Positions 165 to 19,515 of a stretch of DNA of 64,000 bases are shown here, one piece after another (within the stretch, counting starts at the first letter, position 1; each line of letters starts with the position of its first letter). This DNA comes from Candidatus Kaelpia imicola. Lineage in GTDB: Bacteria > Omnitrophota > Gorgyraeia > Kaelpiales > Kaelpiaceae. The translations under genes and the position numbers were made by a program. The stretch spans positions 34,807 to 98,806 of the forward strand of contig JAVCCL010000032.1 in NCBI GenBank assembly GCA_030765505.1, written 5' to 3'. A model generated the notes under the pieces. The model had not been told where the DNA came from. It did no database searches and saw nothing but the letters and a program-made list of their open reading frames with translations.

Positions 165-267
165 AATTTTGGGGGCAATTTGCATTTTATGTAGTATGGT
201 ATAAATATTGCACAAATATTGCATAAAATGTTTAAAATGAGTAAATTAAAAAAATTCAGAAATCGAC

Positions 268-1131: not shown

Positions 1132-1149
1132 ATAAGGTTTTAAATAAAG

Positions 1150-1175
1150 CCTCTCCTTCGGGAGAGGTTTTATTG
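1150..1175 (+). terminator. rho-independent terminator
   Basis: gcCTCTCCttcgGGAGAGGttttatt: GC-rich hairpin followed by a T-run. Confidence 0.6.
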
Positions 1176-1225
1176 GAATTGTTTTTTGAAACTTTTGTAA
1201 AGTTTTTAATTAAGGAGAATATTAA

Positions 1226-4200
1226 ATGAGACAGATTAAAAGGAAAGCAAGTTTTAAAGTGCTTTCAATAATTTTTCTAGAATTTTTTCTCCTATCTCAA
1301 ATAGGCTGGGCTTCAGTTTCACAAGAGATGCTCTCTTCTTATGATCCTGGATTTACAGCTTCTTGTCCAATCAATACGAATAGTTCTTTCTCAATTAATA
1401 TTCCTCTCGAATATGAAGATAGTACTTTCTTTGCTTCTAGCGAGTCGACACTTGAAGAAATAAATGGTTTTACAATAATTCAATCTGATAGTAGTAATAA
1501 TATTCAACTTATAAACCAATATTTTTATGTCGAAATAGTTATTGCAGATAGTGTACCGCCGCTACAAGGAGTTGAGGATATACGTAATTATCTGGAAAAT
1601 CCAGTAGGAGTGCAGGAAATTCTTTTGGAAAGAATTAATGTAGATGAAGAAAAAGATGTTTTTTGTTATAGCTTTAAAGATGTTATTAATTCAGAAAATT
1701 TAGCAATAGAGAGGATTGAATTGGATGAGTCTTCAGGTCAAGTAAGCGTAGAAGGCGGTATAGTAATAGATTATTTAGAGGTTTCATGTGAGCTTGATAA
1801 CGGAGAATTAAACTATCCAGATACAGTAAATTCAATTTCTTCAGTGGAAAATTTTATTCAAATAGTTGGAACTACATATATGGAAGAAAATTATCCAGAG
1901 TTAGCCTCGCAATTGAATTTTTTCATGCATTTTGTTTTAAATAGTTATTTTAATAATGCTACAGGTAGTTGGCCTAAGTCTATTTCATCTCTCGAAGTTA
2001 GTTTTCCAGGTAATGATTACATTATAAGCTATGATAATCAGCATATGTCGATAAATTCTCTGGAAGAAGATTCAACAGATATGGATGTAACTATAAACAG
2101 TGTAGTTGAAATATCTCGAGGTCTCAATCTACCTGCCGAGTATACGCTGTCTTTTAGCAAAGACAGTGAAGCTTTACAGTCATTAAGTCATAAAATAACA
2201 TATTTCCCCGAAAGTGCGTTAGAAAATCCTTGGGAATCAATAGAGATTAGAGATTGCCAGACACAAAAATTGTTGTATAAGGCAGAGAGAGAGTTAAGCG
2301 AAGATGGTTTGCAGATATTGTCTTTTTCTGAAACGCAGTATGATTCTAATGAGGAGATAGTCTCTCAGAGGAAAACAGAGAGATTAGATGATGGTTCAAG
2401 CAGATATGTTCTTGCTGACAAATGGAATAAAATTATAATTTATTATGATGTTACAGAGAAAATAAGAAGAGAAGAGCATTATGTAATGAATCCAGCCGAA
2501 GGTGAATATCAACTAGATTACATGAAAAATGTTTCAGATGTTAATTCTTGGCAGAATGCCTCTGATGAAGTATTTCAACATTACTTTTATATAGTCGGAA
2601 ATGTATGGAGTTTTTCTGATCAAAATCTTGGATTAGGTGATATAACTTTAAGTCAACGCATAGACCAGGTTTTAATTAGTGCAGTAGCGTCTTCTGAAAC
2701 AGGCGAGGGGATTTATTACAACATGCTGGATATTGGTGGATACCATGGTGAATATTCCTCGTCCATATATCAAAGATTATATGAATATAGGGCATGTTTA
2801 ACAAGCGACGGTTCTGATTTAAAAGCATTGTTTGGTCAGGAATTACAGCGATATTTACCTCTTCGTCAAATCGAAACTGCGGATGGTTTAGTAGATGTAT
2901 GGGGGATTGTAGCATTTGAATCTGATAAAATTGATTTAGATAAAGCTAATATAAGAGATGCAATTTTAAATACTTCTTTAGAAAGCAAGGTTATGGATTT
3001 ATATGACATGATAATGGAAGAGAATGGTTCTTGGTTTACTCAATTGACGTCTGAGCAGAAAAGAGATGTATTTAGAAAATTTTTGGAGCCGTTAAAAATA
3101 GATGAAGAAGGTTTAATAAGTGCAGTCTTTGAAAGTGTTGATACTGAATACGAAACTTTTGTTGAAATTTTTGATAGATACTTTATGAAAGAAGTAGATA
3201 TTCCAAAATACGACGAGAGTGATTTTGCAGATAAATTTTTGTATATCCTTGGAGGGGCTAAAAGCTCTGATTCTCTCAACTCTTTCGTGGATACAATATG
3301 TTCTTATCAATCAAACATTCAAGCTTTTCCCGGGGATATTAGAATAGAAGAATTTTATATGGGTAAAGATAATTTTTATAATGACAGAGAATTGGCTTTT
3401 GTTGATGTTTATCAGGAGACAGCAGGAGAAGAGCGTAGATTATTGCAGCGCTGGGCGGGTGCTAATATTTATAAATTTACGGAATGGGATCAAGAAGGGA
3501 GTCCTATAGCTTGCGAGTTAGACGGGGAATTTATTTCTTTTCCTCACGAGGATATATTAAAAGCAGGCTCCCCTGGTGATTGGGAAGAGATGAATCAGGC
3601 GCCTAATAGTTTGTTTCCGATGATTCCCAAGGTTCCAGAGTGGATGTGTCATGGGAAGGTCGGTCTTACTCTTATAAAAAAGAGATATGCTACTGATGGG
3701 CTTAATGTTGCAGCTACCCCTGATTTTGAATCTTTCAGACCTGTTGAATTTGGTGATACATTTAACGAAAGCTATTTTACGCAAGATGAATTTTTGTCTA
3801 GAGATCCAGAGATACTTAAAACATTTTTAAATTTAAATACCGTAACCAGAGGTTTAATTGAAAAGTTTAATATTTCAATTTCAGAATTAGAAGGTAAGCC
3901 ACTCAGTGTTGTTTTTTACGAGATTAATCAAACTATAGCTGATAGATTAGGATTTTCCAATGAGATGAGAGAAGAGCAATTAGAACATCTTAGTGTAGTT
4001 AGGCGTGAATATTATCTTAGAGAAGTGCTTGGTATTACCGAAGAGTCTAAAATCGCTGCCTGTCTCTATGAAAGTAATGAAGTTATTGCTGAGGTCTTTA
4101 GAATGGAATCTATTGGATATAGTGAAGAGCAGATACAAGGTTTTTTGGCGATAGATGAATCTCTTGATGGAATAGCAAGCGAACTGGTTTATATGAGTAG

Positions 4201-5800
4201 GGCAGAGATCGAGGTAAACCTTGCAGAGTTTGGATATAGCTCTGAACAGGTAGATGAATTTTTTGCTATAGAAGATGCATGTCGGTTGGAATCGGAAAGT
4301 GTTTTGCAGCTTCTTAAAGAAGTATATGGAGATGATATTGAACAAATTATGATTACTGCTTTTGAAGATTCTATAAAAGGAACTCCGATGCAAGCATTGA
4401 TAGATAGTGAGGAGTATAGAGAATTTAAAGAAGAGGTTGGATTGATGGGGGTGATAACAAGTGATCCTGAAATAGCTAAAATAGTTTTAAATCGGCTATT
4501 GTTATATTACGATGATTATGAAGATATTGATTTAGATGAATTAATAACAGATTTTAATTCTATTGCAAGTAGAAATTCTGATGTAATAAAAGATTATTTA
4601 GACGTTGTATTAATTGGTACAGAAGATTTCAACGACTGGACCGATAAAGAAATAAGAAGTGCATTATCTTGTGCGTATTTAAAGACAAGAAGAGGGGAAG
4701 AGAGCGCAGACGATGCTTATGAACGGAGAGCAGATTTATTTAGCGCTTGGATGGAAGCAAATAGAGATGTAGGTTATCCTGCTTTTGGAGTAGCTCCGAC
4801 TCAGGATATAATGATTGCTCCTTATTCTGATCGTATGAACTGGGCTCAATTTGCAGGTTGGTCTTTAACGGGTTTAAGTGCTGCTTTTCTTGTTGCTTCG
4901 GGCATAGGTGCAATTTCTGCAGTTACTCTTCCTGTATGGTTAACTCCAATAGTTGCAAATGCAGGTCTTGCGAAAGTTGCTGCTTTTACTGTTGCAGGAA
5001 CATTGTTAACTGGAGTAATGACTGGATCATGGGCGCAAGCCCCATATGGAGGTATTCAGGGTTTTCTTCTAGGGATAACTTATCAAATTTTGCCTAGCGT
5101 TATAAGTGGAACATTAAGATTAGGACGTCCCTTGCTTGCAAAAATACTGGGAAGTACTGTTAGAGCGTCCAATTTCCTTTTGGAATCTGCTAGCCAAAGA
5201 GCGCTTCTAATACCTCTTATAAAGACAGCTACTGGAACAGCTTTTAAAGGACATAAAGTATTGACTTTAGCAGAACGTTTTGGTTGGTTTATTGGTAGTT
5301 ACAAGTTTATTTCTCAGCCTATAGCGGAAGGAGTGGCGAATATTGCTATGAGGAGAAAAGGTTTGGATCCTCAAGATTCTCAGAATCTTTGGATTCATGA
5401 ATTGGCTAATATAGGGGCATTATTAATTATGCCGTTATTTATACCTGGGTCTTGGGCGATGAATACAAGTGTTATATATAGCGGTGGCGAATATCAAGCA
5501 ATCAGACCGTTTACAACAGCTAATAACGTATCTCATTATATTGGAAATTGGACGACGCGGGGCAGTTTTCGTAGCTATGGTAGTTCTCAATTATCGGGGG
5601 CTATTGCTATGCCTTTGGGAGTACAAAGATTGCTTGAAGAATTAGATCAAGATGTAACAGGGATAGAGCTAGGGGTTGCATTAGATAGTTATGGTGTGGA
5701 AAATGAGGAATGGCGAGCAACTTTAAATACCGATTTTGATTCTTGGAAGATGGTATATGAAATTTTATCTGAACTAGGGGTGCTTGAAGATGGAGAATAA
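1226..5800 (+). CDS. giant membrane-anchored acidic protein (1524 aa), N-terminal TM/signal, C-terminal Gly/Ala-rich hydrophobic module
   Basis: Uninterrupted 4.6-kb ORF with RBS AAGGAG 9 nt upstream. N-terminal hydrophobic helix (VLSIIFLEFFLLSQIGWASV), a long D/E-rich region, and a C-terminal ~200-aa Gly/Ala-rich multi-helix hydrophobic segment (GWSLTGLSAAFLVASGIGAISAVTLPVWL...). Its stop overlaps the start of the next giant gene. No recognisable catalytic motif. Confidence 0.75.
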   Translation: MRQIKRKASFKVLSIIFLEFFLLSQIGWASVSQEMLSSYDPGFTASCPINTNSSFSINIPLEYEDSTFFASSESTLEEINGFTIIQSDSSNNIQLINQYFYVEIVIADSVPPLQGVEDIRNYLENPVGVQEILLERINVDEEKDVFCYSFKDVINSENLAIERIELDESSGQVSVEGGIVIDYLEVSCELDNGELNYPDTVNSISSVENFIQIVGTTYMEENYPELASQLNFFMHFVLNSYFNNATGSWPKSISSLEVSFPGNDYIISYDNQHMSINSLEEDSTDMDVTINSVVEISRGLNLPAEYTLSFSKDSEALQSLSHKITYFPESALENPWESIEIRDCQTQKLLYKAERELSEDGLQILSFSETQYDSNEEIVSQRKTERLDDGSSRYVLADKWNKIIIYYDVTEKIRREEHYVMNPAEGEYQLDYMKNVSDVNSWQNASDEVFQHYFYIVGNVWSFSDQNLGLGDITLSQRIDQVLISAVASSETGEGIYYNMLDIGGYHGEYSSSIYQRLYEYRACLTSDGSDLKALFGQELQRYLPLRQIETADGLVDVWGIVAFESDKIDLDKANIRDAILNTSLESKVMDLYDMIMEENGSWFTQLTSEQKRDVFRKFLEPLKIDEEGLISAVFESVDTEYETFVEIFDRYFMKEVDIPKYDESDFADKFLYILGGAKSSDSLNSFVDTICSYQSNIQAFPGDIRIEEFYMGKDNFYNDRELAFVDVYQETAGEERRLLQRWAGANIYKFTEWDQEGSPIACELDGEFISFPHEDILKAGSPGDWEEMNQAPNSLFPMIPKVPEWMCHGKVGLTLIKKRYATDGLNVAATPDFESFRPVEFGDTFNESYFTQDEFLSRDPEILKTFLNLNTVTRGLIEKFNISISELEGKPLSVVFYEINQTIADRLGFSNEMREEQLEHLSVVRREYYLREVLGITEESKIAACLYESNEVIAEVFRMESIGYSEEQIQGFLAIDESLDGIASELVYMSRAEIEVNLAEFGYSSEQVDEFFAIEDACRLESESVLQLLKEVYGDDIEQIMITAFEDSIKGTPMQALIDSEEYREFKEEVGLMGVITSDPEIAKIVLNRLLLYYDDYEDIDLDELITDFNSIASRNSDVIKDYLDVVLIGTEDFNDWTDKEIRSALSCAYLKTRRGEESADDAYERRADLFSAWMEANRDVGYPAFGVAPTQDIMIAPYSDRMNWAQFAGWSLTGLSAAFLVASGIGAISAVTLPVWLTPIVANAGLAKVAAFTVAGTLLTGVMTGSWAQAPYGGIQGFLLGITYQILPSVISGTLRLGRPLLAKILGSTVRASNFLLESASQRALLIPLIKTATGTAFKGHKVLTLAERFGWFIGSYKFISQPIAEGVANIAMRRKGLDPQDSQNLWIHELANIGALLIMPLFIPGSWAMNTSVIYSGGEYQAIRPFTTANNVSHYIGNWTTRGSFRSYGSSQLSGAIAMPLGVQRLLEELDQDVTGIELGVALDSYGVENEEWRATLNTDFDSWKMVYEILSELGVLEDGE

Positions 5801-8800
5801 AGGCCAAAAAAAATATTCTAAAAATAAATACTTTGCAAAAGTATTTAAGGATTGGTCTTTACAAGATTTTATAAAGAAGATAATACTTGTTTTAATTAGT
5901 GAGATATTTCTTGTAACACAGTTATGTTATGGAATAGAAATAACTACCGAACCAGATCAGCTTCCTCCTTTTTTCGGGGATGCTACTGACTTTGCTTTTC
6001 CACTCGATGAAACAAGTCTTTTCCCAGTTAGTCAGACTATTTCAGGTGCACCAAGCCAAGTAGGTACTCTTATATTTGATGCCGGCGATAATCAAATTGT
6101 GCCGGTTAATGTTGAAGAAATAACAGATGGAACATATCAGATTACTCTTCCTTTTGGTTCGGAAGAAGATCCTGTTTTTAACAATTTTCTTGTATCTGGA
6201 TATGAAGTTTATGAAAACGGATGGATACATGCTGATTCCTTGGCTTTAGTAGAAGAGGGTTCTTCATATATAACATATCGCAATTTAGACATGAAACCTG
6301 GTGAGTCTGGAGACGGAGAGAGTAGTGGTTTTATTATCTGGAATGCAGAATTTGAAGTCATTGACGGTACATTCGGGGTTATTGAAGAGGGTGAACTTAC
6401 ACAGTTTAGTTCTTATCAAACAAAGATACTTAAAAAAACAATGTTTAACAGCTATGATCCAGATGGACAAAGATATTTTGAGGGTGACAGAACTGATGAT
6501 GGCGGGCTTATTACAAGCCCTGAAGATTTCAGTGGGATATTTACTGATGATTTCAGGGAAAGCTATTTTAAATATCAGCGTGATTTGCTGAGAGGTCATA
6601 TTGATCCCAGTTTATTTGGTGAAATAGAACCGATTGCGTTTCGGATAAATTATGACGACCAGAAAGATCAGTATGATTTTGAAGCAAATATTAATATTAA
6701 TATTTATTCAATGCTTGCTTATTCTGGTTTTGTTTCTTTTAGTTCTGAATCAAATTTAAATAACATAACCTCTACGGCTATAATAATAAATGAAGAAGTT
6801 GATACAGGATTAGATGAAGAAGCTACTGCAATAATAGATGAAGAAGGAGGGGCAGTTTTAAGCGATGAAATAGAATATTTAAATTTTGGTGCTGGCCTTA
6901 AAGTGGAAGAAAGGTGGGGCATGGTCAATACTTTTACGACGCTTTTAAATAAAAATCTTATTGATGAGGACGGGAACGTTAAAATAAGAGTTAAAGTAGG
7001 TGATGGAACAGAGGGTGTAGAGTTTAGTGTTCCTTTTGTTTACTTGTTAGGAGATGTCCCTCCACCAAAAGAATACTCTCGACCCTCATATAGTGTTATA
7101 GACGATAAATATGACGACCTTACATATTTAATAATGCAGGATATTTGGGATGCGCTTAGATATGACATTATAAGAAAAGAACAAGATATGCAGGAACTAG
7201 ACGATATAATCCATTTACCTGGGTATCTTAAAGACTTAGCTTATTGGCATTTTAGGTATGATGAGACAGGTGATGAGACAGGTGAGGTAAAGAAAGGTTA
7301 TTATCTAGGTGATTTTGGAAGTGTTAGATTTGATGAGAATAGTTCCGAAGTTGTTTTTAATCTTGATTTTACTGAAGAAGAAAAAGAAGCGTGGTTGGGT
7401 TGGGTTTCTCCTGATTTGTATTTTTATGATCGAGACCCGAGTAAATTAACAGCGGCTTTAAATGAATATATTGGAGCAGCATTAGATCTCCCAGAAAAAC
7501 CTCAAGGTGTTATTGCAACGATTGAGCAGGTGCGGGAACAGGCTCTGAATGGAGAATATTATACGATTATTCTTGGCGAAAGATTAGATGATGTTACGAC
7601 TACCTTAGAGAGTTTTACAGTCGATGAGTTATATGAAAATAAAGAGGATTTATATTTTAAAAATCCATTCAGACAGCATGCCTTAAAATATCTACTGGAT
7701 AATGATTTGATAGATACATTAGGAAATGTTGCGGTATCTATTAATATTGACCAGAGTTCTCCTCAAGATGTAGTAGAAATAGTGCTTCCATATCAATACT
7801 TTATTTTATTTGCAGATCCATTACGAGAATCTCTTCCATTAGAATGGAGAGATGATGGAGGATCTCATGACGAAGCTTGTGATGTTTTTTATGATATTCT
7901 AGCAAATGTATCCGGGCGATTAGGTGCTAGAGGGAGAGTAGATATTGATTATGAAAGCAAAAGTTTAATTTATACAGGAAATGAAATAGAGTCTATTATA
8001 TCAACCCCAGAGATGGAACTTGAAATTGGTAGTCTTGTTGTAATATTAGCTGAGAGAGTCACTGTAGATAAAATGAATGATATAGAAATAATTCATAAGC
8101 TTCCAGAAGATGTCGAGTTAGATATGAATGCTATGTTTTTAGACTTAGCTAATGGAATGCTTGACGACCATAGCGTAGAAGAAGATGGTGAACTTGTAGA
8201 AGTTAAAGGACTAAATTCATTGCTTTATGATTTGGATGTTTTAATCGAAGAGGGTGATTGGTCAGAGACAGCTGTAGTAATCGATAAAATATCAGCCATT
8301 AGTCTAGATTTTAAAGAGAAGATGGAGTATATACGGGTCTGTGATTACTACGTTGATCGCTTAACATATATCCATGGAGGGAGTCGGAATGCAAAAATAT
8401 TATGGTGTATAAATATTTCACCCAACTCAGATGGAATAGAAAGCGATATTTATCCATTCATTGAAACACTGCAAAAGTTCTCCCAAGGTAATTGGGCAGA
8501 GGGCATGGAGATCTATAATAACCATGCTCAAGAGTATGACGATAGTCGTCACTTTATAACAGGTTTATTTGGTGAGCTTGATACTGAGATCTCAAGTCAG
8601 ATGAAGAAAGTAGCTGTTCGTGTAGGAATAGCTCGTGCGGCAACCTTTGTCATTTTAAGTATTGCATCTGCAAAACTGGGATTTCTTGCAGGTCGATTCT
8701 TAGGCGCTTGGTCTAAGACCCTTCCATTTATACAGAAGATTCAGGCGTCAACAAGTATCGGTGCACAGATGGCAAAAGGTACTTGGGCAGGATTTAAGGC

Positions 8801-11800
8801 GGTTACCAGGATTTTAGGTGTCTATGTAGATAATGCGACTGAAGCAGCACTAATGTGGCAGTCGTTGCTGCCATTTATGGGTAAAGCCGGTAGGATGCTG
8901 GGGAGTTTAAGTCCGAATTTATTTGGTATGGCGTTACGTTATGGAGTTAACGCTTCTATAGTAGGTACAGGTGCAGCAATGGGTTATCTAAAACCAGGGA
9001 GGAATTTATGGTCTTTCATGAATAATCCTGTTGGATTCTTAATCCCTGCGTCTGAACGTCTAGGTAATTTAGGAGATGTTTTTGAATTTATATCTGTTGC
9101 ATTGGATGGATTTAACTTTGCAAGGACTGGAAGATGGCCTACAAGATCTCCTATGCTAGATTTTTGTCGTAAATATGAGATCCATGTCCCACTTATTACA
9201 CAGATTCAAGAAAAGATAGAAGGCTTTAAAACAGAAGTAGCTTTGCAAAATGTGCTGAATAAATTTAAGACGGCTCGGGCAACTATACATCAGGCAAATA
9301 TAGTTTTTAGCGCAGGACTTTTTGCCGGCTTAGATGTAACTGCTCTAGAAGTGGAATCTTCTTCTACTTCAAGTAGCGTTGAGAGTCAGAGTGAATCAGA
9401 CGAAGAGCCCACTGCACAGTTTGTGTATTTTGCTGATTTAGAGAAGTTTCCGAATGAGGAGAGTTTTCTTGATTATATAAAAGGTTTTAAAGTACGAGTT
9501 AGTGGTGAAGTCAGAAACTTCTGGGATGTGTTATATGAAAAGAATGTTGACCAAAGTAAGACATTAACAGAAGCAGGATTTTTAAAACTTAAATATGAAT
9601 TGATTGGATTAACAGTAGAAGAATTACAAAGATTTCAGGAACTGAAAGGAGACGAAGCCGAAGAATTAATAAGTGCTGGAAATATGCCATTCTTTACTCA
9701 ATTTTACCGTGCTTTATCTGAAAATTTGAATAATCTAACAGATAGGACAGATGTTTCTTTAGCTCAGGCGTTGGCTAAAGTCTATACGGTTATGCACAAT
9801 ACCCTTAGCGTAGGAACAGGCATCCCTTTAAATCTAACATTCCCGCAACTGCTTGCAGCATACTTTGTATGTGAGGGATACAATGTAAGAAAAACTGATA
9901 CAGGTAAAATACGTTCAATTATAGATAAAGTCTTTAATGTATCTACAGGTGAAGGCAAAACCTATATAGAACCTGCAGCTGCAGCAGCGCTTGCATTGAT
10001 GAGGAAAGACGGGGAAAAAGCATTTGATACGGTGCTTATTGCATTCTCTTCTAATATTCTTTGTAAAAGAGATTTCGAGGGTAAAACTGATAACGACAGA
10101 GGTGTTAATATCGATATGCAGGAGTTTTATAGCGCCTTGGGCTTAAGAGTAGCCCATTTAGAGGAACCCCGTGATAATACAGTTAAATCATTTGTAGATT
10201 ACAAACGTAATTTACTAGAAAGGTTGAGAGGGCAGCATAAGCCAGACATTGTTTATGCACCTATTTCAAATATAATATTTCACATTGCTTATAAACTGGC
10301 TGATGAGGATTATTCAGAATTTGATAATTTAGACCGAGTAGCTGTAATTCTTGATGAAGTTGATGCTACTGCCTTAGAACAAGCACAGAGTCCATTTATA
10401 ATAAGCAGGGGTGGCGCAGAAACATACCGCGTTGGTACGCCAGAGGGAGATTTCTTTGAAGCTGTAGGTAGATATATTCGCGGATTGGATTTATTCGGCA
10501 AGTTTGGCTTGTGGGAATCATCACCTGAGGTAGATATTGATGCTTTGAAACAGGAAATCCAAGAATCTAGGGATATTAGCGATGAGGATAGAGAAAATCT
10601 GATAGAAGAATTAAGTGCAGGGAATAGTCCTTTGCAGGTATATCGTGACTGGAAGTTAAAAGTATCGTCTGAGTTAAGAGAGCAGATTCCAGAGATATTA
10701 GCTGACAATATTGCAGATTTAAATTACTCTGGCTTAATTGAGGCGCTGGGATCAGCCGAGAGTATAATACAAAATTATAAAGATAAGTACATTATAGAGT
10801 TTGAAAATGGTGTTCCAAGAGTAATTATTGTAAGTGAATTTAGTCACGAAGCACAGCCAGGTAAAAAATGGCAGAATTGGATACACCAAATGATAGAATC
10901 TTATGTAGAAGGGGTTCCTGTGAGTACGACTAGCTATACTTCAGGTTCAGTTATTATGTATGAAATACTTGCAAAAATGGGTTATGTTGTAGGGCTTTCA
11001 GGCACTGTGGATGTATTTCAAAAAGTTTGGCAAGATCTTCTTAATGCCGCAGTTATGACTTTTCCTGAAGCTTTAAATGATTTAGAGCAGTTTCGAAAGA
11101 CAACTCCTGTATATGGTTATACAAATTATGATCGTAGTCAACAGGATATGATTGGAAGCCTTATAGAGCATGCTATGCACGGCGAATCTGTTGTATTGGC
11201 AACATTAAAATATGAACAGAAGTGTGATGCTGTTTTGACATATTTTAGAGATCAGGGTGCCCAAATAGAAGAAGAAGCTATAGAGGAAACAGAGGGTAAG
11301 ATACGCTATAAGGTAACTTTGTCTACGGGAGATGTTCTGTATGTACAGAAATATGGAGCTCGGGAAGATTTAGACCCAGTGTTAAAAGGTATGATTGAAC
11401 AATTAGCAGGAGAAATGGGATTAATTACAATTGGTTCTCCGATTTTTGGTAGGGGAATTGACATTGATACATCACAAAGAATTTCTGAAGATTCTACTGA
11501 TAATAACGCGATATCTAAAAATGAATTGATTCAGGAAGTACTGGAGAATACATTAAGTGGTCAAGCTGTTGTATTTGCTTCAGAAAAGCATGAGGATGCA
11601 CTGAATGAATTCCTATCTTATTTAGCATTAGATGATATAGAAGCTGAGTCTGTAGAAGGCTTAGAAGGTGCTAGAAAAATTAGAATAGAGTATGAAGGTA
11701 AAGAAGTAGTATTGTTTAGTTACGGCACTAAAGAAGGTGATTTATCCCCAGAGGTAAAAGCAAAAATTCAAGCAGAGATAGACCAAGCTAATGAAATTAA

Positions 11801-12992
11801 TGGAGAGGGAGGGAGATTTATTATTTTCTGTTCACCAAATATTGGACAAGAGTTTAATGTTGGCGACTCAGATCAAGTATTGTATGAAATGAAAGGAGAG
11901 TGGGGTTCAATATATCGCAATCTTCATGTTGTTGCTGATGGATTAATGGCATTATGGCTTACACAGCAGATTATTGGAAGAGCAAAACGTGGAGGGCGAC
12001 CAGGGACTGCTGCAGTATTTTTCTCTACCGATTTTGTCAATGATCCAATTTGGCAGCAATATCAAAAATTGTTCATAGCTCATCCGGAATGGTGGGAAAC
12101 AATTGAATCAAGTGTTGTAAGATTGTCTGATTCAATTGGTGACGCAAGGATGAATGAATTTAGTTTTTTAGATGCACGTATTCAAGAAATTCAAGGTATT
12201 CATGTTCAATCAGTTCTTGGAACTTTGATGAATGTGATGGAGCAATACAAACCACTATATGAATTTCAGGTTGATTTTATACGGGGATTGGGTGAAAGAA
12301 TTAATGGCAATCTAACCCAAGAACAACAGCAGAAAATTCAGGAAATTCAGGAAATTCAAGAATCTAAGAATTTTACTGCCGAAGATAAAGAAGATTTAAT
12401 AGGGCAAATACATGCAAGGAATAATCCACATCAAGTGTTTAAAGAATTTAGAATATTTGAAACGCTAGGTGGAATAACAGTCGATAACTTAAAAGGCTGG
12501 ATTCAAAATGACTCTCTCTATTGTAGCGAAGAAACAAAAATTCAATTAATACAAACTTTAGAAAATGAGGATAATTTAATTTCTCCGCAACTGGTTTATT
12601 TAAGGTGGAGAATCTTGGATTCACCGCTATTATCAATAAATCAAAAATCCAACATTGAAGAGCTGTATACATTATTTGCAAACTCTGCAAGAAGTATTGG
12701 AAACAATAATTTGCCGGAGATTATTAATCAGTGTTTAGATGATGTAGGAAATGGAGACTTAAAAGCAATAATGTTAAAATATCTTACTCCTTCGGATCCT
12801 AATTCGCAAAATTCTCAAAGAGAGACAGCAACGAGTAGAGTTGTTCCTACATATAAATCAATGGTGTTGAATAATTTTGGTGGCGAACAAGCTGCTGTTC
12901 ATTATGGAATTAAGAGTGATTTTAATGACTGGCTCTTAGAAGAAGCAGCTGATATATATGAAATTTTAGTTATTTTGGATTTGGTGAACTGA
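5784..12992 (+). CDS. giant multidomain protein (2402 aa) with embedded SecA-like DEAD-box translocase motor
   Basis: 7.2-kb ORF; TTG at 5784 or, more likely, ATG at 5790 overlaps the upstream stop. It has an N-terminal TM helix ([17 protein letters not shown]), a ~900-aa acidic region, a central Gly-rich hydrophobic module ([28 protein letters not shown]...) and a poly-Ser/acidic linker. A SecA-like core follows. Its NBD1 motifs are STGEGKTY (Walker A), [17 protein letters not shown] and [26 protein letters not shown] (Walker B/DEVD). NBD2 matches are LSGTVD (compare MTGTAA), [11 protein letters not shown] (compare NMAGRGTDI) and [18 protein letters not shown] (compare [18 protein letters not shown]). 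Each was aligned by eye to the genuine SecA at 51090-53963. Confidence 0.8.
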   Translation: [2402 protein letters not shown]

Positions 12993-13011
12993 TATTAAAG
13001 TAATATTTGTA

Positions 13012-15936
13012 GTGTTATGCATTTTCACTGTGCTGGTAAGTCCGGGTTGGGCAGATAATATCTCTGGTTTTAAACAAATTATTTCGGAAAGACAAAACTG
13101 GAACTATATATATAATCAGATTATTGTTGGGTTTAAACATAATAGTAGCAATAAAGAGATAGAATCTTTTATTGAAGAGTATGGGTGTGAGCTGATGGCT
13201 CCGATTGATGAGTTTAGGGTTTACGCTTTAGTCTTACCTCGAGGAGTTTATTATAGCGAAGTGAAAAGAAGCTTTCTAAATGATAAAAGAGTAAGATATG
13301 TTTTACCCAGTTACTATATGCATGCGCAAAGCATGTCTGACTTAGAAGGCGTAGTAAAAAGAGCACGAGATGAAAACGAGAGTAGTTTAAATGAAATAGG
13401 ATTTTTACAAGCACAAGAGTATATGCAATTGTACAGTTCACTATTGCCTGAAAGTGGCGGTGTTGTATTTGCTCTTCTTGATAGCTCTGGTCTTCATCCA
13501 GAATTGATTCAACAGTTGAATGATGCAGGAATATATCGCAATGGAGTTTGTTTCCAAAGGAGTGTTGATAATAGTGTAAATGTGGTTAACAATATTGAAG
13601 AATATACAAATGGCCATGGTACTCAAGTTGCTACATTACTCAGCACTTTAGGAGAAGGTTCTGAAATTATGCACATACAGTTCGATGGTGGATTAGGAAC
13701 ATTTATCGAGGGGATTAAATATGCTATCAGAGAGACTAGAGATAATAAAGAGCGATTGATTATAAATTCTAGTATGAGCATTTCTTTAGAATCTTTTAGT
13801 TATGATACAATGAAGTTTTTATTAAGAGATTATTATTTAGCTCAATCAATTGAAGAAGCAAGAATCGATGGTCAGGATGATAAAGCAATATATGATAGCT
13901 ATATTGATTATCGTAATGAGGCTCGAATCAAATCTTATGGTATTGTTGACGAGATTTTTACAATGGTTGATTCTGGAATAATTAATAATTTTCAGAATTG
14001 GGATGAAAGTGATTGGGCAATTGTTAGAGAGAAGTTTTCTTTGTTTGACGAAGAGATAAGTTTACTTAAATATGCTGAACATGTTGCAAGACGCGATTTC
14101 CAGTATTTTGTAAAAAGTCCTCTTTATGAAGATTTTGAAGAATTTTCTCAACATGCAATTATTGTTTCTGCAGCTGGTAATTGTAATGATTCAGGCATGG
14201 CTTTACCTTCGAGTTATCCTGGAGTAATTGGGGTTGGGGCAAGCTATAATGATAATATTGCAAGTTATTCTCGCTATGGCAATGCGGTAGATTTATATGC
14301 TCCAGGAGGGTATGCCTATGGAGATGTTTGGACTTACGACATTCAGGACGGTAGTTTAATTGAAACTAAATCTAAGAGAGGAACATCCCTTGCAGCACCT
14401 TTTGTTACTGCAATGGTTGGCTTAATTTGGAATGAAAATCCAGATTTAACCCCAGCAGAAATGAGTAATATTATTATTGCAAGTTCTTGTAATATATTTG
14501 ATAGTAATTTGGAGATTTATTTTAAACAAATAGATGGGCAGCAAGCAGCTATTCTTGCTTGCGCATATTCTTCTATAAAAGATGTCATAGCATTAATTGA
14601 TGATTATACTTCCGATGAATTTGATTTATTGGAACAGATAAATCAAAATTTAATTTTTAGTCAAAAATTGATTTCAGAACAAGTTGAAAATAGGCTATTA
14701 AACGATATAGATCTTTTTATTTCGGGGGTGCTTACAGCGAAAGAGCTTGAGGTGAATTTTCTCACTCAGCTATGGAATTTGGAGTCAGATGTTGGCATAC
14801 GGGTAGCATCGGGATTAGCTATAAATTATCTTCAGGATGATAGAATTTTAAAATCTGTGCTGGAAAAAAGTATTTCTGGCACTTCGACAGATATAGTACA
14901 GAAAATGTTAGATATTGTAAGCAATGAGGATAATAATTTTGATATTTTTAAAATAGAGCATGTTTTTAAGTCGTATGTAGTATTGAGCGACTTATATCAA
15001 GATTTAAAAGATTCAACCATTTCCCAAAGTTCTTTTATGCAAAGTGTGGAATTAATTTTTGGTATGCAAAATAAAATGTTCGAGAAATATATTCCTCAAT
15101 TTGTGAGTATTATTAATAGATTTATAAATGCTGAAATAGATTCAAACCAAGCTCAGCAAATGGTGTGTAATATAGCGTGGGATGTATGTACATCATTAGG
15201 GGATGAAGATTCTAAAATAGCTATAGCATTATATGTTGATAGCTTAGATGATGTGGAGTTTTTAAAGAATCTTCTTCAGCATCAGTTTCCACAATTAGAC
15301 TCAGGAATAATGGATGTTATTATTCAAGAGTCTTTATTTGAATGTAGAGATACAGACTCTTTAACGTTGCATGTATTTGATGTAGCAAATACATTAAACT
15401 ACTTAAATGAAATGTTTACTGCTATTGAGAAATTTGATTTAGAGTGGAATAATGAAATAGATTATTCGGTAGATTATTTAAAGCTAAGTGATTTGGGTAA
15501 TTGGGAAGACTGGAGTAAATTTTTAGACCAAAATATTCAGCGGAAAGAGTACATGGAAAACTTAGAAGTCTATCAAGATGTAGAATTTTTTTATACAGGT
15601 TTAGTAGAAAATTTATGTTCAATTTTTTTGGAACAAAAAATAATATCTTCAGAGTTTCAGGATGCAATTAATGCTCATATTTGGGATTTTGTAAATGGAG
15701 ATATAGATATTATTGCTGCTCAAGGAAATATTTTGGATAGCATTGAACAGGAAGCAGAATTACCTCAAATTTTATTAGGTACAAGTATTATACGTAGCAT
15801 TAGGTGGGATGAAGTGGATAATATTAGCGTTCCAACGATAGAAACAAACACCTCTCTTACTGTTCCAGGAGTAGATACAGCTGTAATTGATCAGCAGTTT
15901 GGAAATATTGAATTTGATTTTAATCAATTTTTGTAA
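13012..15936 (+). CDS. subtilisin-like serine peptidase (S8 family) with ~500-aa C-terminal extension
   Basis: GTG start. Short N-terminal signal-like segment (LCIFTVLVSPGWA). Asp region VVFALLDSSG, His motif NGHGTQVATLL and Ser motif KRGTSLAAPFVTAM form a subtilase catalytic triad in canonical order. A long extension of unknown function follows. Confidence 0.75.
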   Translation: MLCIFTVLVSPGWADNISGFKQIISERQNWNYIYNQIIVGFKHNSSNKEIESFIEEYGCELMAPIDEFRVYALVLPRGVYYSEVKRSFLNDKRVRYVLPSYYMHAQSMSDLEGVVKRARDENESSLNEIGFLQAQEYMQLYSSLLPESGGVVFALLDSSGLHPELIQQLNDAGIYRNGVCFQRSVDNSVNVVNNIEEYTNGHGTQVATLLSTLGEGSEIMHIQFDGGLGTFIEGIKYAIRETRDNKERLIINSSMSISLESFSYDTMKFLLRDYYLAQSIEEARIDGQDDKAIYDSYIDYRNEARIKSYGIVDEIFTMVDSGIINNFQNWDESDWAIVREKFSLFDEEISLLKYAEHVARRDFQYFVKSPLYEDFEEFSQHAIIVSAAGNCNDSGMALPSSYPGVIGVGASYNDNIASYSRYGNAVDLYAPGGYAYGDVWTYDIQDGSLIETKSKRGTSLAAPFVTAMVGLIWNENPDLTPAEMSNIIIASSCNIFDSNLEIYFKQIDGQQAAILACAYSSIKDVIALIDDYTSDEFDLLEQINQNLIFSQKLISEQVENRLLNDIDLFISGVLTAKELEVNFLTQLWNLESDVGIRVASGLAINYLQDDRILKSVLEKSISGTSTDIVQKMLDIVSNEDNNFDIFKIEHVFKSYVVLSDLYQDLKDSTISQSSFMQSVELIFGMQNKMFEKYIPQFVSIINRFINAEIDSNQAQQMVCNIAWDVCTSLGDEDSKIAIALYVDSLDDVEFLKNLLQHQFPQLDSGIMDVIIQESLFECRDTDSLTLHVFDVANTLNYLNEMFTAIEKFDLEWNNEIDYSVDYLKLSDLGNWEDWSKFLDQNIQRKEYMENLEVYQDVEFFYTGLVENLCSIFLEQKIISSEFQDAINAHIWDFVNGDIDIIAAQGNILDSIEQEAELPQILLGTSIIRSIRWDEVDNISVPTIETNTSLTVPGVDTAVIDQQFGNIEFDFNQFL

Positions 15937-15950
15937 TTTAATTAATATGT

Positions 15951-17489
15951 ATGAAAGTATTGAGTAAAAGAAATATTATTTATTACGTAGGTTGTTTTTT
16001 AAGTATTTCCTTATTGTTTTGTTGCTTTTTTTTATCATATTCAGAAGGTAATGAGTTTAGTCAAGATAAATTAATCTCAGCTGTTTTGATTTTGACAGAA
16101 CAATGGGGTAGCTTGCTAGACAAAGAGCAACTAATAGAAGATATTGAAAAACTAACACCTTTAAAGGCGAAGGCTTCTAAAGAAAGTTTTATTGTAAATA
16201 TTGTCAGAGCTGTGCGGAAACAGGGAGTTTTTTTAGAAGCGTTTGCTTTAGAGTCTAAAGATATAACGAAACTTAAAGAAAATAAAACAGCGTTTATATC
16301 TTTACTCAAAAATGGAGATTTATGTTATGTTGTTAAAAATATAGAGATTAAAAATAATAAAGCTGTATTTAGTTGTATTTTGCCCGATAGAAAGGAAATT
16401 TTTATAGATGAACGTGATTTTTTTTCTTGTTGGGAAGGTATGGTTATTTCAAAACCGCTTGTTAATATTAAAGCAAAAAGATTACTGAATAAGGAGGGGG
16501 ATAATAAATTTGTTGCTCTTTATTTTTATCATTCAGGTGAAGATTTTAACTTATTGCGTAAAGTTTTAGAAAAATTAAAAGAAGAGGCGGAAAGGACAAA
16601 TAAGAAACTTATTTACATTGATGAATTAGGCTTAATTCCAGAAAGGTCTATTGAATCTTATATGAAGGTAAATCAAATTGGAGAAAAAGAGGCTTTTGAG
16701 CTAATTAAGAAGATGTTAAATGAAGATATATCTAATGTTGGAAAAGGAGTTGCTATTTTAGGTGAAACCAATCCATTCTATAGACAGCTTTATCAATATT
16801 TAGCAAAGAATAAGATTGAATCATACATGGAAGACTTGCGATATGATGCATGGAAAAAGATAGTTGTTTTTGACAGCATGGAATATTATAGCAAGGCTAT
16901 CAATTACTTTTTTTTCAACAATATTGATAAGTATATTAAATCTATAGAAAGATTTATTGAGGGATATTGGGAGTATAATATTAAAAGAAGAGATGATGAT
17001 TTTAGAAGTCAAATAAAAAAGATAGTCGCAAAACACCCCAACTCTCTCATTTTTACAATTAGGGGAATTGGGCATTATGGAATGGATAACGATATTAACT
17101 TAGATAATTTAGCAGTGGAAACTTTAGTATTTGGTCGTGGAATATTTGAAGATAATCTGTTGCACTCTCAGATGTATTATATATTGCTTTCGAATGATAT
17201 TGTTATGAAAGAGAACGATAAAAAGCTTGCTATTCTTAAAACATACTTCGAAGATACTTTACGAGCATATTTTGTAAAAAAAGGATTAAATATTCCTGAG
17301 GCGACACAGTTAGTATGCAAAATATCAAAACGGTTGAAAGAAAAAAATGTTTTAAAATTTTCACAAGCAATTTACTATGCTGTGATTAAACAACCGGAGC
17401 AATTGCAGGAAATGTGGGGTTTTACTTACAATTGGTTTAAAAATCAAGGTTTTATCAAAGAGGAAGATCTTAAAGTATTCCAGAATTAA
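15951..17489 (+). CDS. membrane protein with degenerate papain/C39-like domain (catalytic Cys/His not conserved)
   Basis: N-terminal TM (IIYYVGCFLSISLLFCCFFLSY). The segment ...NGDLCYVVKNIEIKNNKAVFSCILPDRKEIFIDERDFFSCWEGMVISKP has the spacing of the C39 His-box (HfvVl...DP..G...F...W.G), but with D in place of His and no N-terminal Cys box. Low-confidence fold assignment. Confidence 0.55.
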   Translation: MKVLSKRNIIYYVGCFLSISLLFCCFFLSYSEGNEFSQDKLISAVLILTEQWGSLLDKEQLIEDIEKLTPLKAKASKESFIVNIVRAVRKQGVFLEAFALESKDITKLKENKTAFISLLKNGDLCYVVKNIEIKNNKAVFSCILPDRKEIFIDERDFFSCWEGMVISKPLVNIKAKRLLNKEGDNKFVALYFYHSGEDFNLLRKVLEKLKEEAERTNKKLIYIDELGLIPERSIESYMKVNQIGEKEAFELIKKMLNEDISNVGKGVAILGETNPFYRQLYQYLAKNKIESYMEDLRYDAWKKIVVFDSMEYYSKAINYFFFNNIDKYIKSIERFIEGYWEYNIKRRDDDFRSQIKKIVAKHPNSLIFTIRGIGHYGMDNDINLDNLAVETLVFGRGIFEDNLLHSQMYYILLSNDIVMKENDKKLAILKTYFEDTLRAYFVKKGLNIPEATQLVCKISKRLKEKNVLKFSQAIYYAVIKQPEQLQEMWGFTYNWFKNQGFIKEEDLKVFQN

Positions 17490-17586
17490 GCCTGCGATTA
17501 TTCGATTTGTTTTTATCCCGTCTTTTATATTTAAAAACATTCTATTTTTTCAATTTAATGGTATAATTACTTATACGGAGGAAGGG

Positions 17587-19296
17587 GTGAAAACAGAGAA
17601 GATTGTACTGTTTGTTCTAGTTTTTTTATCCCTGTTGCTTTTAAATATTTCATATGCAATAGAAGATTTAGAAAATTCAGGGATGTCTATATTAGGGGTA
17701 TATCCTGTCCAATGTCAATCTTATACCGTTTGGAACATTAACACATCTATCCAATCTTTTTCAATGCTTCCTATATTCAATTTAGAAGAGTTAAGCGATG
17801 ATTTCAAGTCCAACATAGATCTTAGTGGTGTATCTTTTTCTAATATAGAGGTTGAAAGTAATTTCAGTCCATATTGTTTTGATAATATTGTTGAATTGCC
17901 TGATATCGAAATAGAAGAGATTGTTGTTGAGTTACCTATTTCAGTAGAAGTTATAGATGAGGGAAATAAAGTATTTAAGCTTATCTTGGGCAATAAAGAG
18001 AGAAGCAGTATAAGTTTTATGGTTAAAGATGATGGTTTCTATGATTTAGAGGGTGAGTTTAAAGATACTTTCCTTGAGTTTGAATGGGCTAATGAACGCT
18101 TTAAAATAACTGTTTGTGATTCTGAAGAGAGCCTAGGGATATCAATTAAACCTTTAAATAGTGAGGTATACCCCAGGATATACTATAAGAAAGAGTTTAA
18201 TCTTGGGGTGTTTGATGGAGAGTACTCGTTGGGTTTTGTGAATCATAAACCTTATCTTGATATTATTTTAAAAGATTCAGATCAGGAGATTTTATCGGTT
18301 GATTTAGATCAAGATGAGCTATCTTTAAAGCTTAATATGAATCTTCCAATGTCTTTTGAGGATAGCATATCTTTAAGCTCCGACTCTTTTAAGATCGAAG
18401 ATGGAAATATTGATGGAAATATTGAAATTACATTAAATGAAGATGAGCAGAAGGTTGTGTTAAGAATAGGAGAGGGCGGTTACTTTGAGATAACTCAAAA
18501 TGGTAGCATGCGGGAGATAATAGATAAATTCTATACTGAGATTGCAGTTGATTTACAAAAGATGGTCGTACAGTTAGCAGAAGACGATGATAGTCTTGAC
18601 CCTAATATGACGGTAGATGATATAAGAGAGGTTTTATGGGAGGCAACAGGGGATGATTTAGAAGGTATGTTTGAAATAGTTCAGGATGCAAATGAGCAGA
18701 GACAGGGATTAGTAGTTCCAGGCGAAGTACGTCTATATTTGGATTTATCTAGTAATAATAGTCAAAAAAACGCTGAGCTTACATTTCCACTAATAGAGGA
18801 TAGCCTAGCCTTAAAGATGGGCTTAGAACCAGATGCTATTCAGATTAATTGTCTTGCTGATATATCAAGTATCTCAACTGCATCTACAGCTGAAGTTGGT
18901 TATAATAGTGATGGTCTAGTTCTATTTAAGCTTGCTGATTTAGCGGCGCTATCTTTAGTTAAGTTAGGAGTATCCCTTGATGGAAATATTGAATCTGTAG
19001 CTTTTAGAGTTAAAAATATCGAGGGTGATATCAACAGGGAAGGGTTTGAGGTAAGGAGTGTAGAAGATAGCTTACTTGGTTCATCAGCCTTGGATATTCT
19101 TCTTAGAGGATTGGAAGTTCAAGATAGTTCTACCAACTGGTGTTTTGGTTATGATTTTGAAGACGATTTATATCTAGGTTTTGGTATACCACTTAGTGAA
19201 GAAGTTAAGATTAGAGGCAGGATAAATAATCAAGGTTTAAGTTTTAAAACGCAGATATCTTTTATGGGGGGGGGGAATTCTAACAATAGAAAGTGA
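17587..19296 (+). CDS. secreted acidic hypothetical protein (569 aa)
   Basis: RBS GGAGGAAGGGG precedes a GTG start. Signal peptide IVLFVLVFLSLLLLNISYAIED. D/E-rich. Contains a G10 homopolymer 25 nt before the stop. Confidence 0.6.
   Translation: MKTEKIVLFVLVFLSLLLLNISYAIEDLENSGMSILGVYPVQCQSYTVWNINTSIQSFSMLPIFNLEELSDDFKSNIDLSGVSFSNIEVESNFSPYCFDNIVELPDIEIEEIVVELPISVEVIDEGNKVFKLILGNKERSSISFMVKDDGFYDLEGEFKDTFLEFEWANERFKITVCDSEESLGISIKPLNSEVYPRIYYKKEFNLGVFDGEYSLGFVNHKPYLDIILKDSDQEILSVDLDQDELSLKLNMNLPMSFEDSISLSSDSFKIEDGNIDGNIEITLNEDEQKVVLRIGEGGYFEITQNGSMREIIDKFYTEIAVDLQKMVVQLAEDDDSLDPNMTVDDIREVLWEATGDDLEGMFEIVQDANEQRQGLVVPGEVRLYLDLSSNNSQKNAELTFPLIEDSLALKMGLEPDAIQINCLADISSISTASTAEVGYNSDGLVLFKLADLAALSLVKLGVSLDGNIESVAFRVKNIEGDINREGFEVRSVEDSLLGSSALDILLRGLEVQDSSTNWCFGYDFEDDLYLGFGIPLSEEVKIRGRINNQGLSFKTQISFMGGGNSNNRK
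19266..19275 (+). repeat. G10 homopolymeric tract inside the 3' end of a CDS
   Basis: atgGGGGGGGGGGaattc, encoding MGGGNS near the C-terminus of the 17587-19296 gene. Extreme outlier for an AT-rich genome. Confidence 0.8.
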
Positions 19297-19515
19297 TGGT
19301 AGTTTTGAATATAAGATAAAGAGAGAGAATATAGATTTTAGATTTATTATTGATAATGAATAATAGACTTATTGTAACTCAATATTCATCAGGTATTTAT
19401 TTTTACCCCCATAATTTTTAAAAGTAGTGATAAAATTTGACAGCCCCTACTTTATATGGTACAAATATATTAGGTAAGAAAAGATGGTAGAACAGAAATT
19501 AAGTTTACATAAGGG

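Follow-up and report, generated by a model that had tools for sequence, protein, structure and literature searches.

A block of five same-strand open reading frames (ORFs) at positions 1226-19296 was analysed in a 64,000-nt stretch of DNA, referred to here as the window, from Candidatus Kaelpia imicola, a bacterium of the phylum Omnitrophota (GenBank assembly GCA_030765505.1, contig JAVCCL010000032.1, positions 34,807 to 98,806 of the forward strand). The predicted products are two very large proteins, one of which bears a SecA-like ATPase, followed by an S8 subtilase, an exported protein with a C39-like domain and a secreted acidic protein. A secretion or envelope function was supported as the best reading of the block. 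The set of modules, including a PilZ gene downstream, matches the one published for the giant proteins of Omnitrophota, and is here carried on separate genes. In our judgement there is about an even chance that the block represents a lineage-specific form, expanded and unfused, of an envelope system with which Omnitrophota make very large acidic surface proteins. Because the combination of SecA-like, C39 and S8 domains in Omnitrophota giants has already been reported in a preprint (10.1101/2023.11.21.568195), the block is not regarded as a new kind of system.

All five ORFs were reproduced by the mechanical ORF list of the window, on the plus strand and with the lengths and positions given in an earlier annotation made from the letters alone (hereafter the sequence-only reading). 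They are ORF1 (1226-5800, 1524 aa, ATG start), ORF2 (5784-12992, 2402 aa from TTG, or 2400 aa from ATG 5790 as in the NCBI annotation), ORF3 (13012-15936, 974 aa from GTG), ORF4 (15951-17489, 512 aa) and ORF5 (17587-19296, 569 aa, GTG start). The products of ORF1, ORF2 and ORF4 are identical to the hypothetical proteins P9L98_05135, P9L98_05140 and P9L98_05150 of the Candidatus Kaelpia imicola metagenome-assembled genome (MAG; Omnitrophota, 103-kb contig). ORF1 and ORF2 overlap by 17 nt when ORF2 starts at TTG 5784, or by 11 nt when it starts at ATG 5790. The gap between ORF2 and ORF3 is 19 nt, which shrinks to 1 nt with an ORF3 start at ATT 12994, and the gaps between ORF3 and ORF4 and between ORF4 and ORF5 are 14 nt and 97 nt, respectively. 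The overlap and the close packing described earlier were thus confirmed, except that the ORF3-ORF4 gap had been counted as 13 nt. Start-stop distances of 1-19 nt, together with the lack of a Shine-Dalgarno sequence before ORF4, fit translational coupling.

The only strong terminator-like site within 1-20000 is a hairpin at 1143-1174, 5' of ORF1, which agrees with the view of the block as one tightly packed same-strand unit. Terminator-like sites within the ORFs were considered as a sign of independent transcription and rejected, since they were short matches in coding sequence and their number was near the chance expectation. Between the upstream rdgB and ORF1, together with the hairpin, lies a further gene for a small secreted protein, ORF0. 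The possibility that ORF1 and ORF2 are a single frameshifted gene was rejected because ORF2 starts with its own complete copy of the leader. Four of the products are strongly acidic, with net charges of -63 to -188 for ORF1, ORF2, ORF3 and ORF5. The sequence-only reading had extended this to every product, which does not apply to ORF4 (Asp plus Glu, D+E, 13.9 %; Lys plus Arg, K+R, 15.2 %; net charge +7).

The SecA-like ATPase domain of ORF2 (9894-12053, about aa 1371-2090, plus strand) matched PF07517 with 33.3 bits, against a Pfam gathering score of 24.6. NCBIfam models of SecA and SecA2 scored 35-41 bits against equivalog cut-offs of 800-930 (41 versus 814 for one of them), and SecA sequences from the PDB matched at E 7e-5. 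When the AlphaFold2 model of the motor was compared with the PDB by Foldseek, the best 34 matches were all SecA, with E values down to 6e-17, well ahead of DinG/XPD and MDA5-type helicases. The presence of a motor on a giant protein, as claimed earlier, was therefore upheld. Walker A (TGEGKT, aa 1388) and Walker B (LDEVD, aa 1523) were found in the first nucleotide-binding domain (NBD1), and motif III (GLSGT, aa 1737), motif V (FGRGIDI, aa 1888) and motif VI (GRAKRGGRPG, aa 2065) in the second (NBD2); when ORF2 is aligned with 23 SecA-like proteins, these motifs fall on columns that hardly vary. The motor is a SecA-like ATPase which has diverged strongly but keeps every nucleotide-binding motif. 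A canonical SecA is also encoded in the window (51090-53963, 957 aa; DEAD, PP_bind, P-loop, scaffold/wing and SEC-C domains). The identity of the ORF2 motor to it is 21 % over 556 aa, which makes the motor a second, highly divergent SecA paralog.

No match to PF01043, PF07516 or PF02810 (SEC-C) was found in ORF2, whereas the canonical SecA of the window has its PP_bind, scaffold/wing and SEC-C domains. At the position of the preprotein cross-linking domain (PPXD), ORF2 has an insert of the right length with a conserved stem, and the predicted structure of the insert is helical, with low to medium confidence. In SecA this domain is flanked by a beta-hairpin stem and a GRxxPGxxW..G.HQ segment, both of which are kept in ORF2. 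The first 50 or so residues after motif VI align weakly with SecA (E 0.039), and a long helix was predicted there with a predicted local distance difference test score (pLDDT) below 50. The first half of NBD2 is present again as a degenerate tandem copy between motifs V and VI (E 5e-10; aa ~1792-1900 versus ~1930-2045, about 11157-11483 versus 11571-11918), in which GRGIDI of motif V has changed to GQEFNV. Furthermore, a repeat of about 40 aa (..ED.E.LI....A.N.P.QV...) occurs both at the PPXD position and in the C-terminal tail (E 2e-8; aa ~1600-1640 versus 2193-2235, about 10581-10703 versus 12360-12488). A HMMER search with aa 930-2129 of ORF2 gave 35 weak matches at E<=1e-3 among 1.84 billion representative sequences, which do not suffice for a phylogenetic tree of the motor.

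The whole of ORF2 is ordered as cleavable-looking leader, acidic ectodomain, transmembrane (TM) segment, basic module, linker, SecA-like ATPase and a 310-aa helical tail. The ectodomain (aa 52-940, 889 aa) has 20.4 % D+E and 6.6 % K+R. It is followed by the TM segment (aa 943-973) and a conserved membrane-proximal module (together 8604-9203, aa 941-1140, plus strand) with the motifs LR.G.NA..VG and NP.GFL.P....GNLGD..EF, and the conserved 170 aa after the TM segment have 4.0 % D+E and 11.0 % K+R. This charge asymmetry across the membrane fits an acidic part outside and a motor inside, and on this basis the acidic domains are placed, tentatively, outside the cytoplasmic membrane and the motor inside. 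ORF1 has a similar layout: a leader, an acidic ectodomain of about 1170 aa (about aa 30-1200; D+E 19.1 %) and a C-terminal hydrophobic block (about aa 1206-1419). It is probably a membrane-anchored surface protein, laid out as ORF2 without the motor. Paralogy of ORF1 and ORF2 was unsupported, since BLASTP aligned only their hydrophobic blocks at a non-significant E of 0.52. ORF1 had no Pfam or NCBIfam match and found only itself in a homolog search of 5.8 billion proteins, and word-indexed homolog searches with ORF1 and ORF2 returned the query proteins only.

The membrane module of ORF2 has homologs in five proteins, P0027, P0029, P0030, P0031 and P0034. P0027 is a truncated SecA-bearing protein, and P0029, P0031 and P0034 are proteins of about 1200 aa. 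P0031 (positions 294-3875 of contig L026) is a complete stand-alone gene for 1193 aa from a metagenome of the Joint Genome Institute (JGI), with an ORF2-type leader and membrane module and no SecA-like domain; it has no co-directional neighbour within its 4.4-kb contig. A metagenome scan with the ORF2 membrane module returned just two short contigs with a stand-alone 1193-aa homolog, which carry no synteny information.

A common leader of unusual type links the giant proteins of this and related loci. Its motif, [KR]-h7-E-[ILF]-[FL]-h-h-[STN]-Q-x-x-[FWY]-[AGS] (h, hydrophobic residue), is found in ORF1 (1247-1312, aa 8-29, plus strand; KVLSIIFLEFFLLSQIGWA/S, where the slash marks the leader end, read as K-h7-E-h-F-h-h-S/T-Q-x-x-aromatic-small) and in ORF2 (5859-5936, aa 26-51, plus strand; KKIILVLISEIFLVTQLCYG/I). 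It is also carried by the giants of loci L001 and L002, by P0031 and by P0034, and L029 and L031 have variants of it. No further match to the strict regular expression was present when the window and 25 loci were translated in six frames. Homology of ORF1, ORF2 and the L021 giant to the bodies of six other giants was examined and rejected: the profile built from those six matched ORF1 and ORF2 solely at the N-terminal leader. No description of this motif was found in the passages of the literature that were examined.

ORF3 belongs to the S8 family, as shown by matches to PF00082 (79.9 bits) and to the fervidolysin-like N-propeptide PF22148 (31.8 bits), and the protease proposed for the block was confirmed. 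The catalytic set is intact, with D157 (LLDSSG), H202 (HGTQVA), the oxyanion residue N390 (AAGN) and S459 (GTSLAAP). An insertion of about 130 aa lies between His and Asn, and the acidic C-terminal domain of 480 aa has no recognised fold. The signal peptide is complete only when translation begins at ATT 12994 (MKVIFVVLCIFTVLVSPGWA/DN; 980 aa, 12994-15936), a codon one base past the ORF2 stop and 6 nt past a GGTGA. No Shine-Dalgarno sequence precedes the GTG at 13012, and a start there leaves the hydrophobic core only, with no charged N-region. ATT 12994 is thus probably the start, and ORF3 is predicted to be a secreted S8 subtilase with an intact catalytic triad. The earlier claim that every product begins with a membrane helix or signal peptide holds for ORF3 in full only with this start.

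ORF4 is the sole well-conserved member of the block; its 24 homologs measure about 500 aa and come without exception from Omnitrophota-type MAGs. Its AlphaFold2 model, built from an alignment with the homologs, had a pLDDT of 90.1 and was divided into an N-terminal anchor (aa 9-27), a domain with a papain-like C39 fold (about aa 36-170, nt 16056-16460) and a second, alpha/beta domain with the TIKI fold (TIKI/EreA/ChaN type, about aa 180-512, nt 16488-17486). Because a signal peptide or anchor opens the protein, both domains should be extracytoplasmic. None of the catalytic Cys, His and Asp of C39 is conserved at the corresponding positions in the 24 homologs; opposite the His and Asp of ComA, the alignment shows gaps or residues that are not conserved. 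In the TIKI-fold domain, H194, D224, E225, R347 and H375 are invariant in 24 sequences, and ORF4 has E197, where the family consensus keeps a Glu two residues past the His (HxE). It has been reported that two His, two Glu and a conserved basic residue are the hallmark of the TIKI superfamily (PMC6254334). The invariant His/Glu/Arg set of ORF4 mirrors these active residues at the level of sequence. The Pfam model TraB_PrgY_gumN matched one of the 24 members, at E 0.03. From sequence and model, ORF4 is thus not a C39 protease but an exported protein with a non-catalytic C39-like domain and a TIKI-fold, putative hydrolase domain. The sequence-only reading had called it a C39-like membrane protein; its C39-like and anchored or exported nature stood, while the catalytic residues and an ABC fusion are lacking and the TIKI domain had gone unseen. 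A fusion of C39-like and TIKI domains was not found in the literature searched.

Two ORF4-family paralogs are often present at a locus. They stand in tandem in L001 (8500-11497) and L002 (8340-11521), occupy 2-547 and 5862-7397 in L010, and flank an ORF5 homolog in L012 (2-1261 and 3531-5024). In L009, the second ORF4-family locus of MAG M55B152, the ORF4 homolog is followed by a gene (5049-7154) for an N-terminally anchored 701-aa protein with an ARMT1-like damage-control phosphatase domain (PF01937, 94.9 bits), which is unexpected for an apparently exported protein.

ORF5 had no family match and is predicted to be a secreted acidic protein. At L010, L012 and L020 an ORF5 homolog immediately adjoins one of ORF4, and ORF5 is taken to be an accessory partner of ORF4; a homolog was absent from L004, the locus of the nearest relative. 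Near its 3' end there is a tract of ten G (19266-19275). As assembled, the protein ends in ...MGGGNSNNRK with the stop at 19296; with one G fewer, it would end in GGGILTIESDGSFEYKIKRENIDFRFIIDNE followed by a stop at 19361-19363, extending the gene to 19363, which agrees with the C-termini of the L010 and L012 homologs. The frameshift would be either a homopolymer assembly error or slipped-strand phase variation. The next gene encodes a PilZ-domain protein (19516-19872, plus strand; PF07238, 57.9 bits). A PilZ gene takes the same downstream position in L004, and the protein is a possible cyclic di-GMP (c-di-GMP) input.

To place the block among its relatives, ORF4 was used as the anchor gene and about 27 distinct loci were examined. 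A core cassette, consisting of a gene for a small secreted protein, one for a giant leader-bearing protein and an ORF4-family gene, was found in eight loci including the window. In six of them (L001, L002, L028, L029, L030 and L031), a small secreted protein of 151-261 aa precedes a giant of 1684-1902 aa without Pfam match, after which come one or two ORF4-family genes, either overlapping or 0-20 nt apart; these six giants are mutually homologous. L021 encodes, in order, a 241-aa secreted protein, an 1847-aa acidic protein, an anchored 846-aa SecA_DEAD protein (68 bits) and an ORF4 homolog, and the 846-aa protein has a weak match to PF01043 (21.3 bits versus a cut-off of 23.5). In L004, an ORF3 homolog (48 % identity) lies directly upstream of an ORF4 homolog (57 %), followed by PilZ, a sigma-54 activator and rpoN, a synteny like that of the window. 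No description of the cassette was found in the passages of the literature that were examined. Co-occurrence across relatives, suggested earlier as a check on the block, gave a mixed result. The five genes do not form a conserved set, since ORF1 and ORF2 have no close homologs, ORF5 is missing in L004 and ORF4 homologs occur also in housekeeping contexts. Pairs and the three-gene core do recur in Omnitrophota, with ORF4 homologs beside ORF3 or ORF5 homologs, so the homologs are not without co-occurrence in other genomes.

ORF0 (457-1131, plus strand) encodes a small secreted protein of 224 aa from ATG 457, with the mechanical ORF beginning at GTG 307. It has the signal peptide MKKFLALVVLVALCTTPAFG and the Shine-Dalgarno sequence AAGGAGGAAGG. 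Its position matches that of the small signal-peptide protein preceding the giant gene in seven other loci. No significant similarity between ORF0 and these proteins was found beyond the signal peptide, and they are therefore positional analogs only. The hairpin after ORF0 (1143-1174, plus strand) is GC-rich, with a 14-bp stem and a U-run, and may serve as an intrinsic terminator or attenuator. Seven of the eight cassettes have a strong GC-rich hairpin, usually with a U-run, between the small and the giant gene (L001 2696-2779, L002 3080-3186, L028 1342-1414, L029 3712-3802, L031 623-711, L021 1607-1674 and window 1129-1228), and the hairpin sequences are unrelated; L030, with a gap of 20 nt, is the sole cassette without one. 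ORF0 and its hairpin were counted as parts of the system because of this synteny with the related loci.

The published giants of Omnitrophota offer the closest comparison. According to a preprint (10.1101/2023.11.21.568195), they have signal peptides, C39 and/or S8 domains, and TM anchors followed by a divergent SecA_DEAD domain without scaffold and wing; a separate canonical SecA is encoded in the genome, and pilZ lies directly downstream of most giant genes. In a second preprint (10.64898/2026.06.07.730766), C39 and SecA_DEAD form the two largest architecture clusters of long Omnitrophota proteins. The block resembles the SecA_DEAD giants (West-Roberts et al. 2023) in phylum, N-terminal signal and a largely unannotatable acidic body; in a TM anchor followed by a divergent SecA_DEAD without scaffold/wing, a likeness in domain layout; and in its C39-like and S8 modules, separate canonical SecA and immediately downstream pilZ. 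It differs from them in that the modules are spread over five or six genes of 0.5-2.4 kaa, whereas a giant is one protein of >10-80 kaa. ORF1 and ORF2, with 1524 and 2402 aa, are far shorter than giants of >10,000-30,000 aa with many TM regions. The C39-like and S8 domains are encoded by separate genes, ORF4 and ORF3, and not on the polypeptide of the motor; they are downstream of the motor here but near the N-terminus in the giants, and the C39-like module shares its polypeptide with a TIKI-fold domain. No TIKI/TraB/EreA-type domain is mentioned in the first preprint (10.1101/2023.11.21.568195). The same source describes large genes as common in Omnitrophota and rare in most bacteria, so the rarity noted in the sequence-only reading is true of bacteria generally but not of this phylum. 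Carbohydrate-active or dockerin-type domains were not detected in the block, and type II secretion genes were not found among the window ORFs scanned.

The motor was also compared with canonical SecA and SecA2, with which it shares NBD1, NBD2, the Walker A/B motifs, motifs III, V and VI and the preprotein cross-linking stem, and which are its best match by sequence and structure. Unlike canonical SecA, a soluble or peripheral protein of about 800-1000 aa, it lies inside a 2402-aa integral membrane protein, half of its NBD2 is duplicated, and PP_bind, SecA_SW and SEC-C are not detectable. Genes for the accessory Sec partners SecY2 and Asp1-3 and for glycosyltransferases were not found at 1-24000. 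ORF4 departs from the C39-like domains of type I ATP-binding cassette (ABC) transporters (HlyB, PDB 3zua; 3b79) in having no ABC domains, in following a signal or anchor, in its extracytoplasmic location and in its fusion to TIKI. From the known TIKI, TraB-PrgY, erythromycin esterase and ChaN members it differs by the N-terminal C39-like fusion and by having essentially no Pfam-level sequence match.

If the block is such an unfused envelope system, it might work as follows. ORF1 and ORF2 would be inserted with their acidic domains outside the membrane, and the membrane-tethered SecA-like motor would drive the export of long acidic chains in trans, namely ORF1, ORF2 and perhaps ORF3 and ORF5. 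The motor could act alongside, or in place of, the housekeeping SecA. Outside the membrane, ORF3 and ORF4 may process or mature the exported chains, where the C39-like domain would bind the substrate or the leader and the TIKI domain would be the hydrolase. Partial read-through of the hairpin after ORF0 would set a high ratio of the small to the giant protein, and the downstream PilZ protein may tie the system to c-di-GMP. Because the same modules occur fused in the giants, the operon and the giant genes could be two packagings of one system.

Several observations weigh against this reading. A C-terminal motor is unable to aid the co-translational export of its own N-terminal domain. The AlphaFold2 model of ORF2 aa 1203-2402 had a mean pLDDT of 58.6 and was confident only in the two nucleotide-binding domains, and with a possible second hydrophobic segment at aa 1166-1192 the number of TM segments is uncertain. 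ORF1 and ORF2 are orphans, tied to the other giants by leader, architecture and gene position but not by their bodies. The leader ends in an ordinary small-x-small site of the signal-peptidase-I type, so its removal needs no special protease. A SecA-like gene is present in only two of the about 27 ORF4-family loci and two of the eight cassettes; with six cassettes lacking it, the core cassette can do without a motor. At seven distinct loci (L008/L016, L015, L017, L018, L019, L022 and L023), ORF4 homologs from a more distant subclade lie in a uvrA/exbBD neighbourhood with no giant gene nearby, in the order S-adenosylmethionine (SAM) hydroxide adenosyltransferase, ORF4-like, UvrA, TPR/YfiO-like, ExbB, ExbD ... 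PilM, which indicates that the tie of ORF4 to a neighbouring giant does not hold for all genomes. As for the hairpin at 1143-1174, it might simply terminate a separate ORF0 unit. ORF5, finally, may be partly independent of the block, as judged from a strong Shine-Dalgarno sequence (GGAGGAAGG) in the ORF4-ORF5 gap and an extended -10-like TGgTATAAT at about 17559-17568 upstream of it.

Some of these points would suit a different account, in which the genes are co-located without forming one machine: ORF4, with ORF5 in some genomes, would be a general envelope-maintenance hydrolase in Omnitrophota, ORF1 and ORF2 would be independent, fast-evolving surface or adhesion proteins, and the packing would reflect shared regulation. 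The housekeeping neighbourhood at those seven loci speaks for it, as do the absence of ORF5 in the nearest relative and the promoter-like site and Shine-Dalgarno sequence of its own; P0031, a leader-bearing homolog of the N-terminal half of ORF2, is likewise alone on its contig. Several other ORF4 homologs lie near glycolysis genes (PGK, iPGM, FBP aldolase). Set against this, the giant gene of eight loci, in divergent genomes, is followed by the ORF4-family gene either at once (0-20-nt gap or overlap) or after no more than a paralog, a SecA-like gene, or a SecA-like gene and a subtilase, and the close junctions of the window, with ORF4 lacking a Shine-Dalgarno sequence, fit translational coupling. 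Mere co-location is considered rather unlikely.

A more far-reaching version of the envelope reading, which we regard as doubtful and a little less probable than co-location, is a so far unrecognised, Omnitrophota-specific sorting pathway for surface proteins. In this pathway a dedicated leader, a hydrophobic helix with the conserved Glu and Gln, would be recognised and processed, or the emerging chain would be, by the exported C39-like/TIKI enzyme, with membrane-tethered SecA-like motors added in some lineages. The giant genes would then be fused operons, and this operon their modular ancestor or a fission product.

Yet another possibility is that the SecA-like domain is not an export motor. 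It might be a membrane-tethered ATPase which remodels or signals through the ORF2 ectodomain, by inside-out mechanical coupling, or which acts on another polymer. Such a role would suit the extreme divergence of the motor, with so few matches in the HMMER search and so low an identity to its own SecA; the missing PF01043, PF07516 and SEC-C matches, the helical insert with the repeated 40-aa motif at the cross-linking position and the duplicated first half of NBD2; and the lack of a motor in most core cassettes. We nevertheless consider it improbable, as nothing matches the domain better than SecA, whether in sequence or in fold, the flanks of the cross-linking domain are kept, the L021 homolog retains a weak PF01043 match, and the neighbouring genes all encode exported proteins.

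A type I secretion or bacteriocin-type system, with C39 cutting double-glycine leaders, or a contact-dependent toxin delivery system (contact-dependent inhibition (CDI), Rhs or MARTX-like) is very improbable: the C39-like fold of ORF4, the large secreted proteins and the occurrence of the TIKI fold in MARTX effector domains (PMC6254334) would accord with it, but no ABC transporter, membrane-fusion protein or TolC-type gene is present in or beside the block, ORF4 is without the Cys, His and Asp needed for catalysis and lies behind a signal peptide on the extracytoplasmic side, the leaders are N-terminal hydrophobic signal sequences and not of the double-glycine type, and no TpsB/POTRA, haemagglutinin or YD repeat, RTX, Rhs, toxin or immunity domain was found in the six products with Pfam and NCBIfam at E<=0.1. 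Where secretion or a contact-dependent system had been proposed in the sequence-only reading, only the secretion part is retained.

The envelope reading is of interest since the export and cleavage of Omnitrophota giants (up to >100,000 aa) and the roles of their SecA-like, C39 and S8 modules are puzzling, and their size makes them experimentally intractable. At the Kaelpia locus this module set is spread over separate genes of 0.5-2.4 kaa that can be cloned; the SecA-like motor could be expressed alone, and ORF4 has a confident fold with testable candidate catalytic residues. The leader motif, the eight-locus cassette and the non-catalytic C39 module paired with a TIKI-fold domain, none of which was found in the literature searched, are new handles. 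If the link to the giant genes holds, it would point to an origin of these genes by fusion of operon units and would make their export and processing testable. The operon could thus open the giant-protein problem to experiment, with its function inferred and its key proteins orphans.

The flanks of the cluster are as described earlier, with ORF0 and its hairpin added. Upstream lies the C-terminus of rdgB (3-161), and just downstream, after the PilZ gene, a sigma-54 activator and rpoN are encoded on the minus strand (19869-22243); the activator has 341 aa and matches AAA+, lid and HTH domains only. An Rfam scan of 1-23000 found no RNA element. Upstream of ORF0 there is a sigma-70 near-consensus promoter, TTGACA-16-TATAAA, at 269-296. 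A search for sigma-54 promoters gave none directly upstream of ORF1; the one near the cluster precedes ORF0, as a sigma-54-like element (TGGTAT-N5-TTGCA, 197-212) in the rdgB-ORF0 gap, 245 nt 5' of the ORF0 ATG. Matches to the sigma-54 pattern numbered 33 in the window versus 18.3 +/- 4.3 in shuffled sequences, and a nearly identical element also occurs at 55552-55567.

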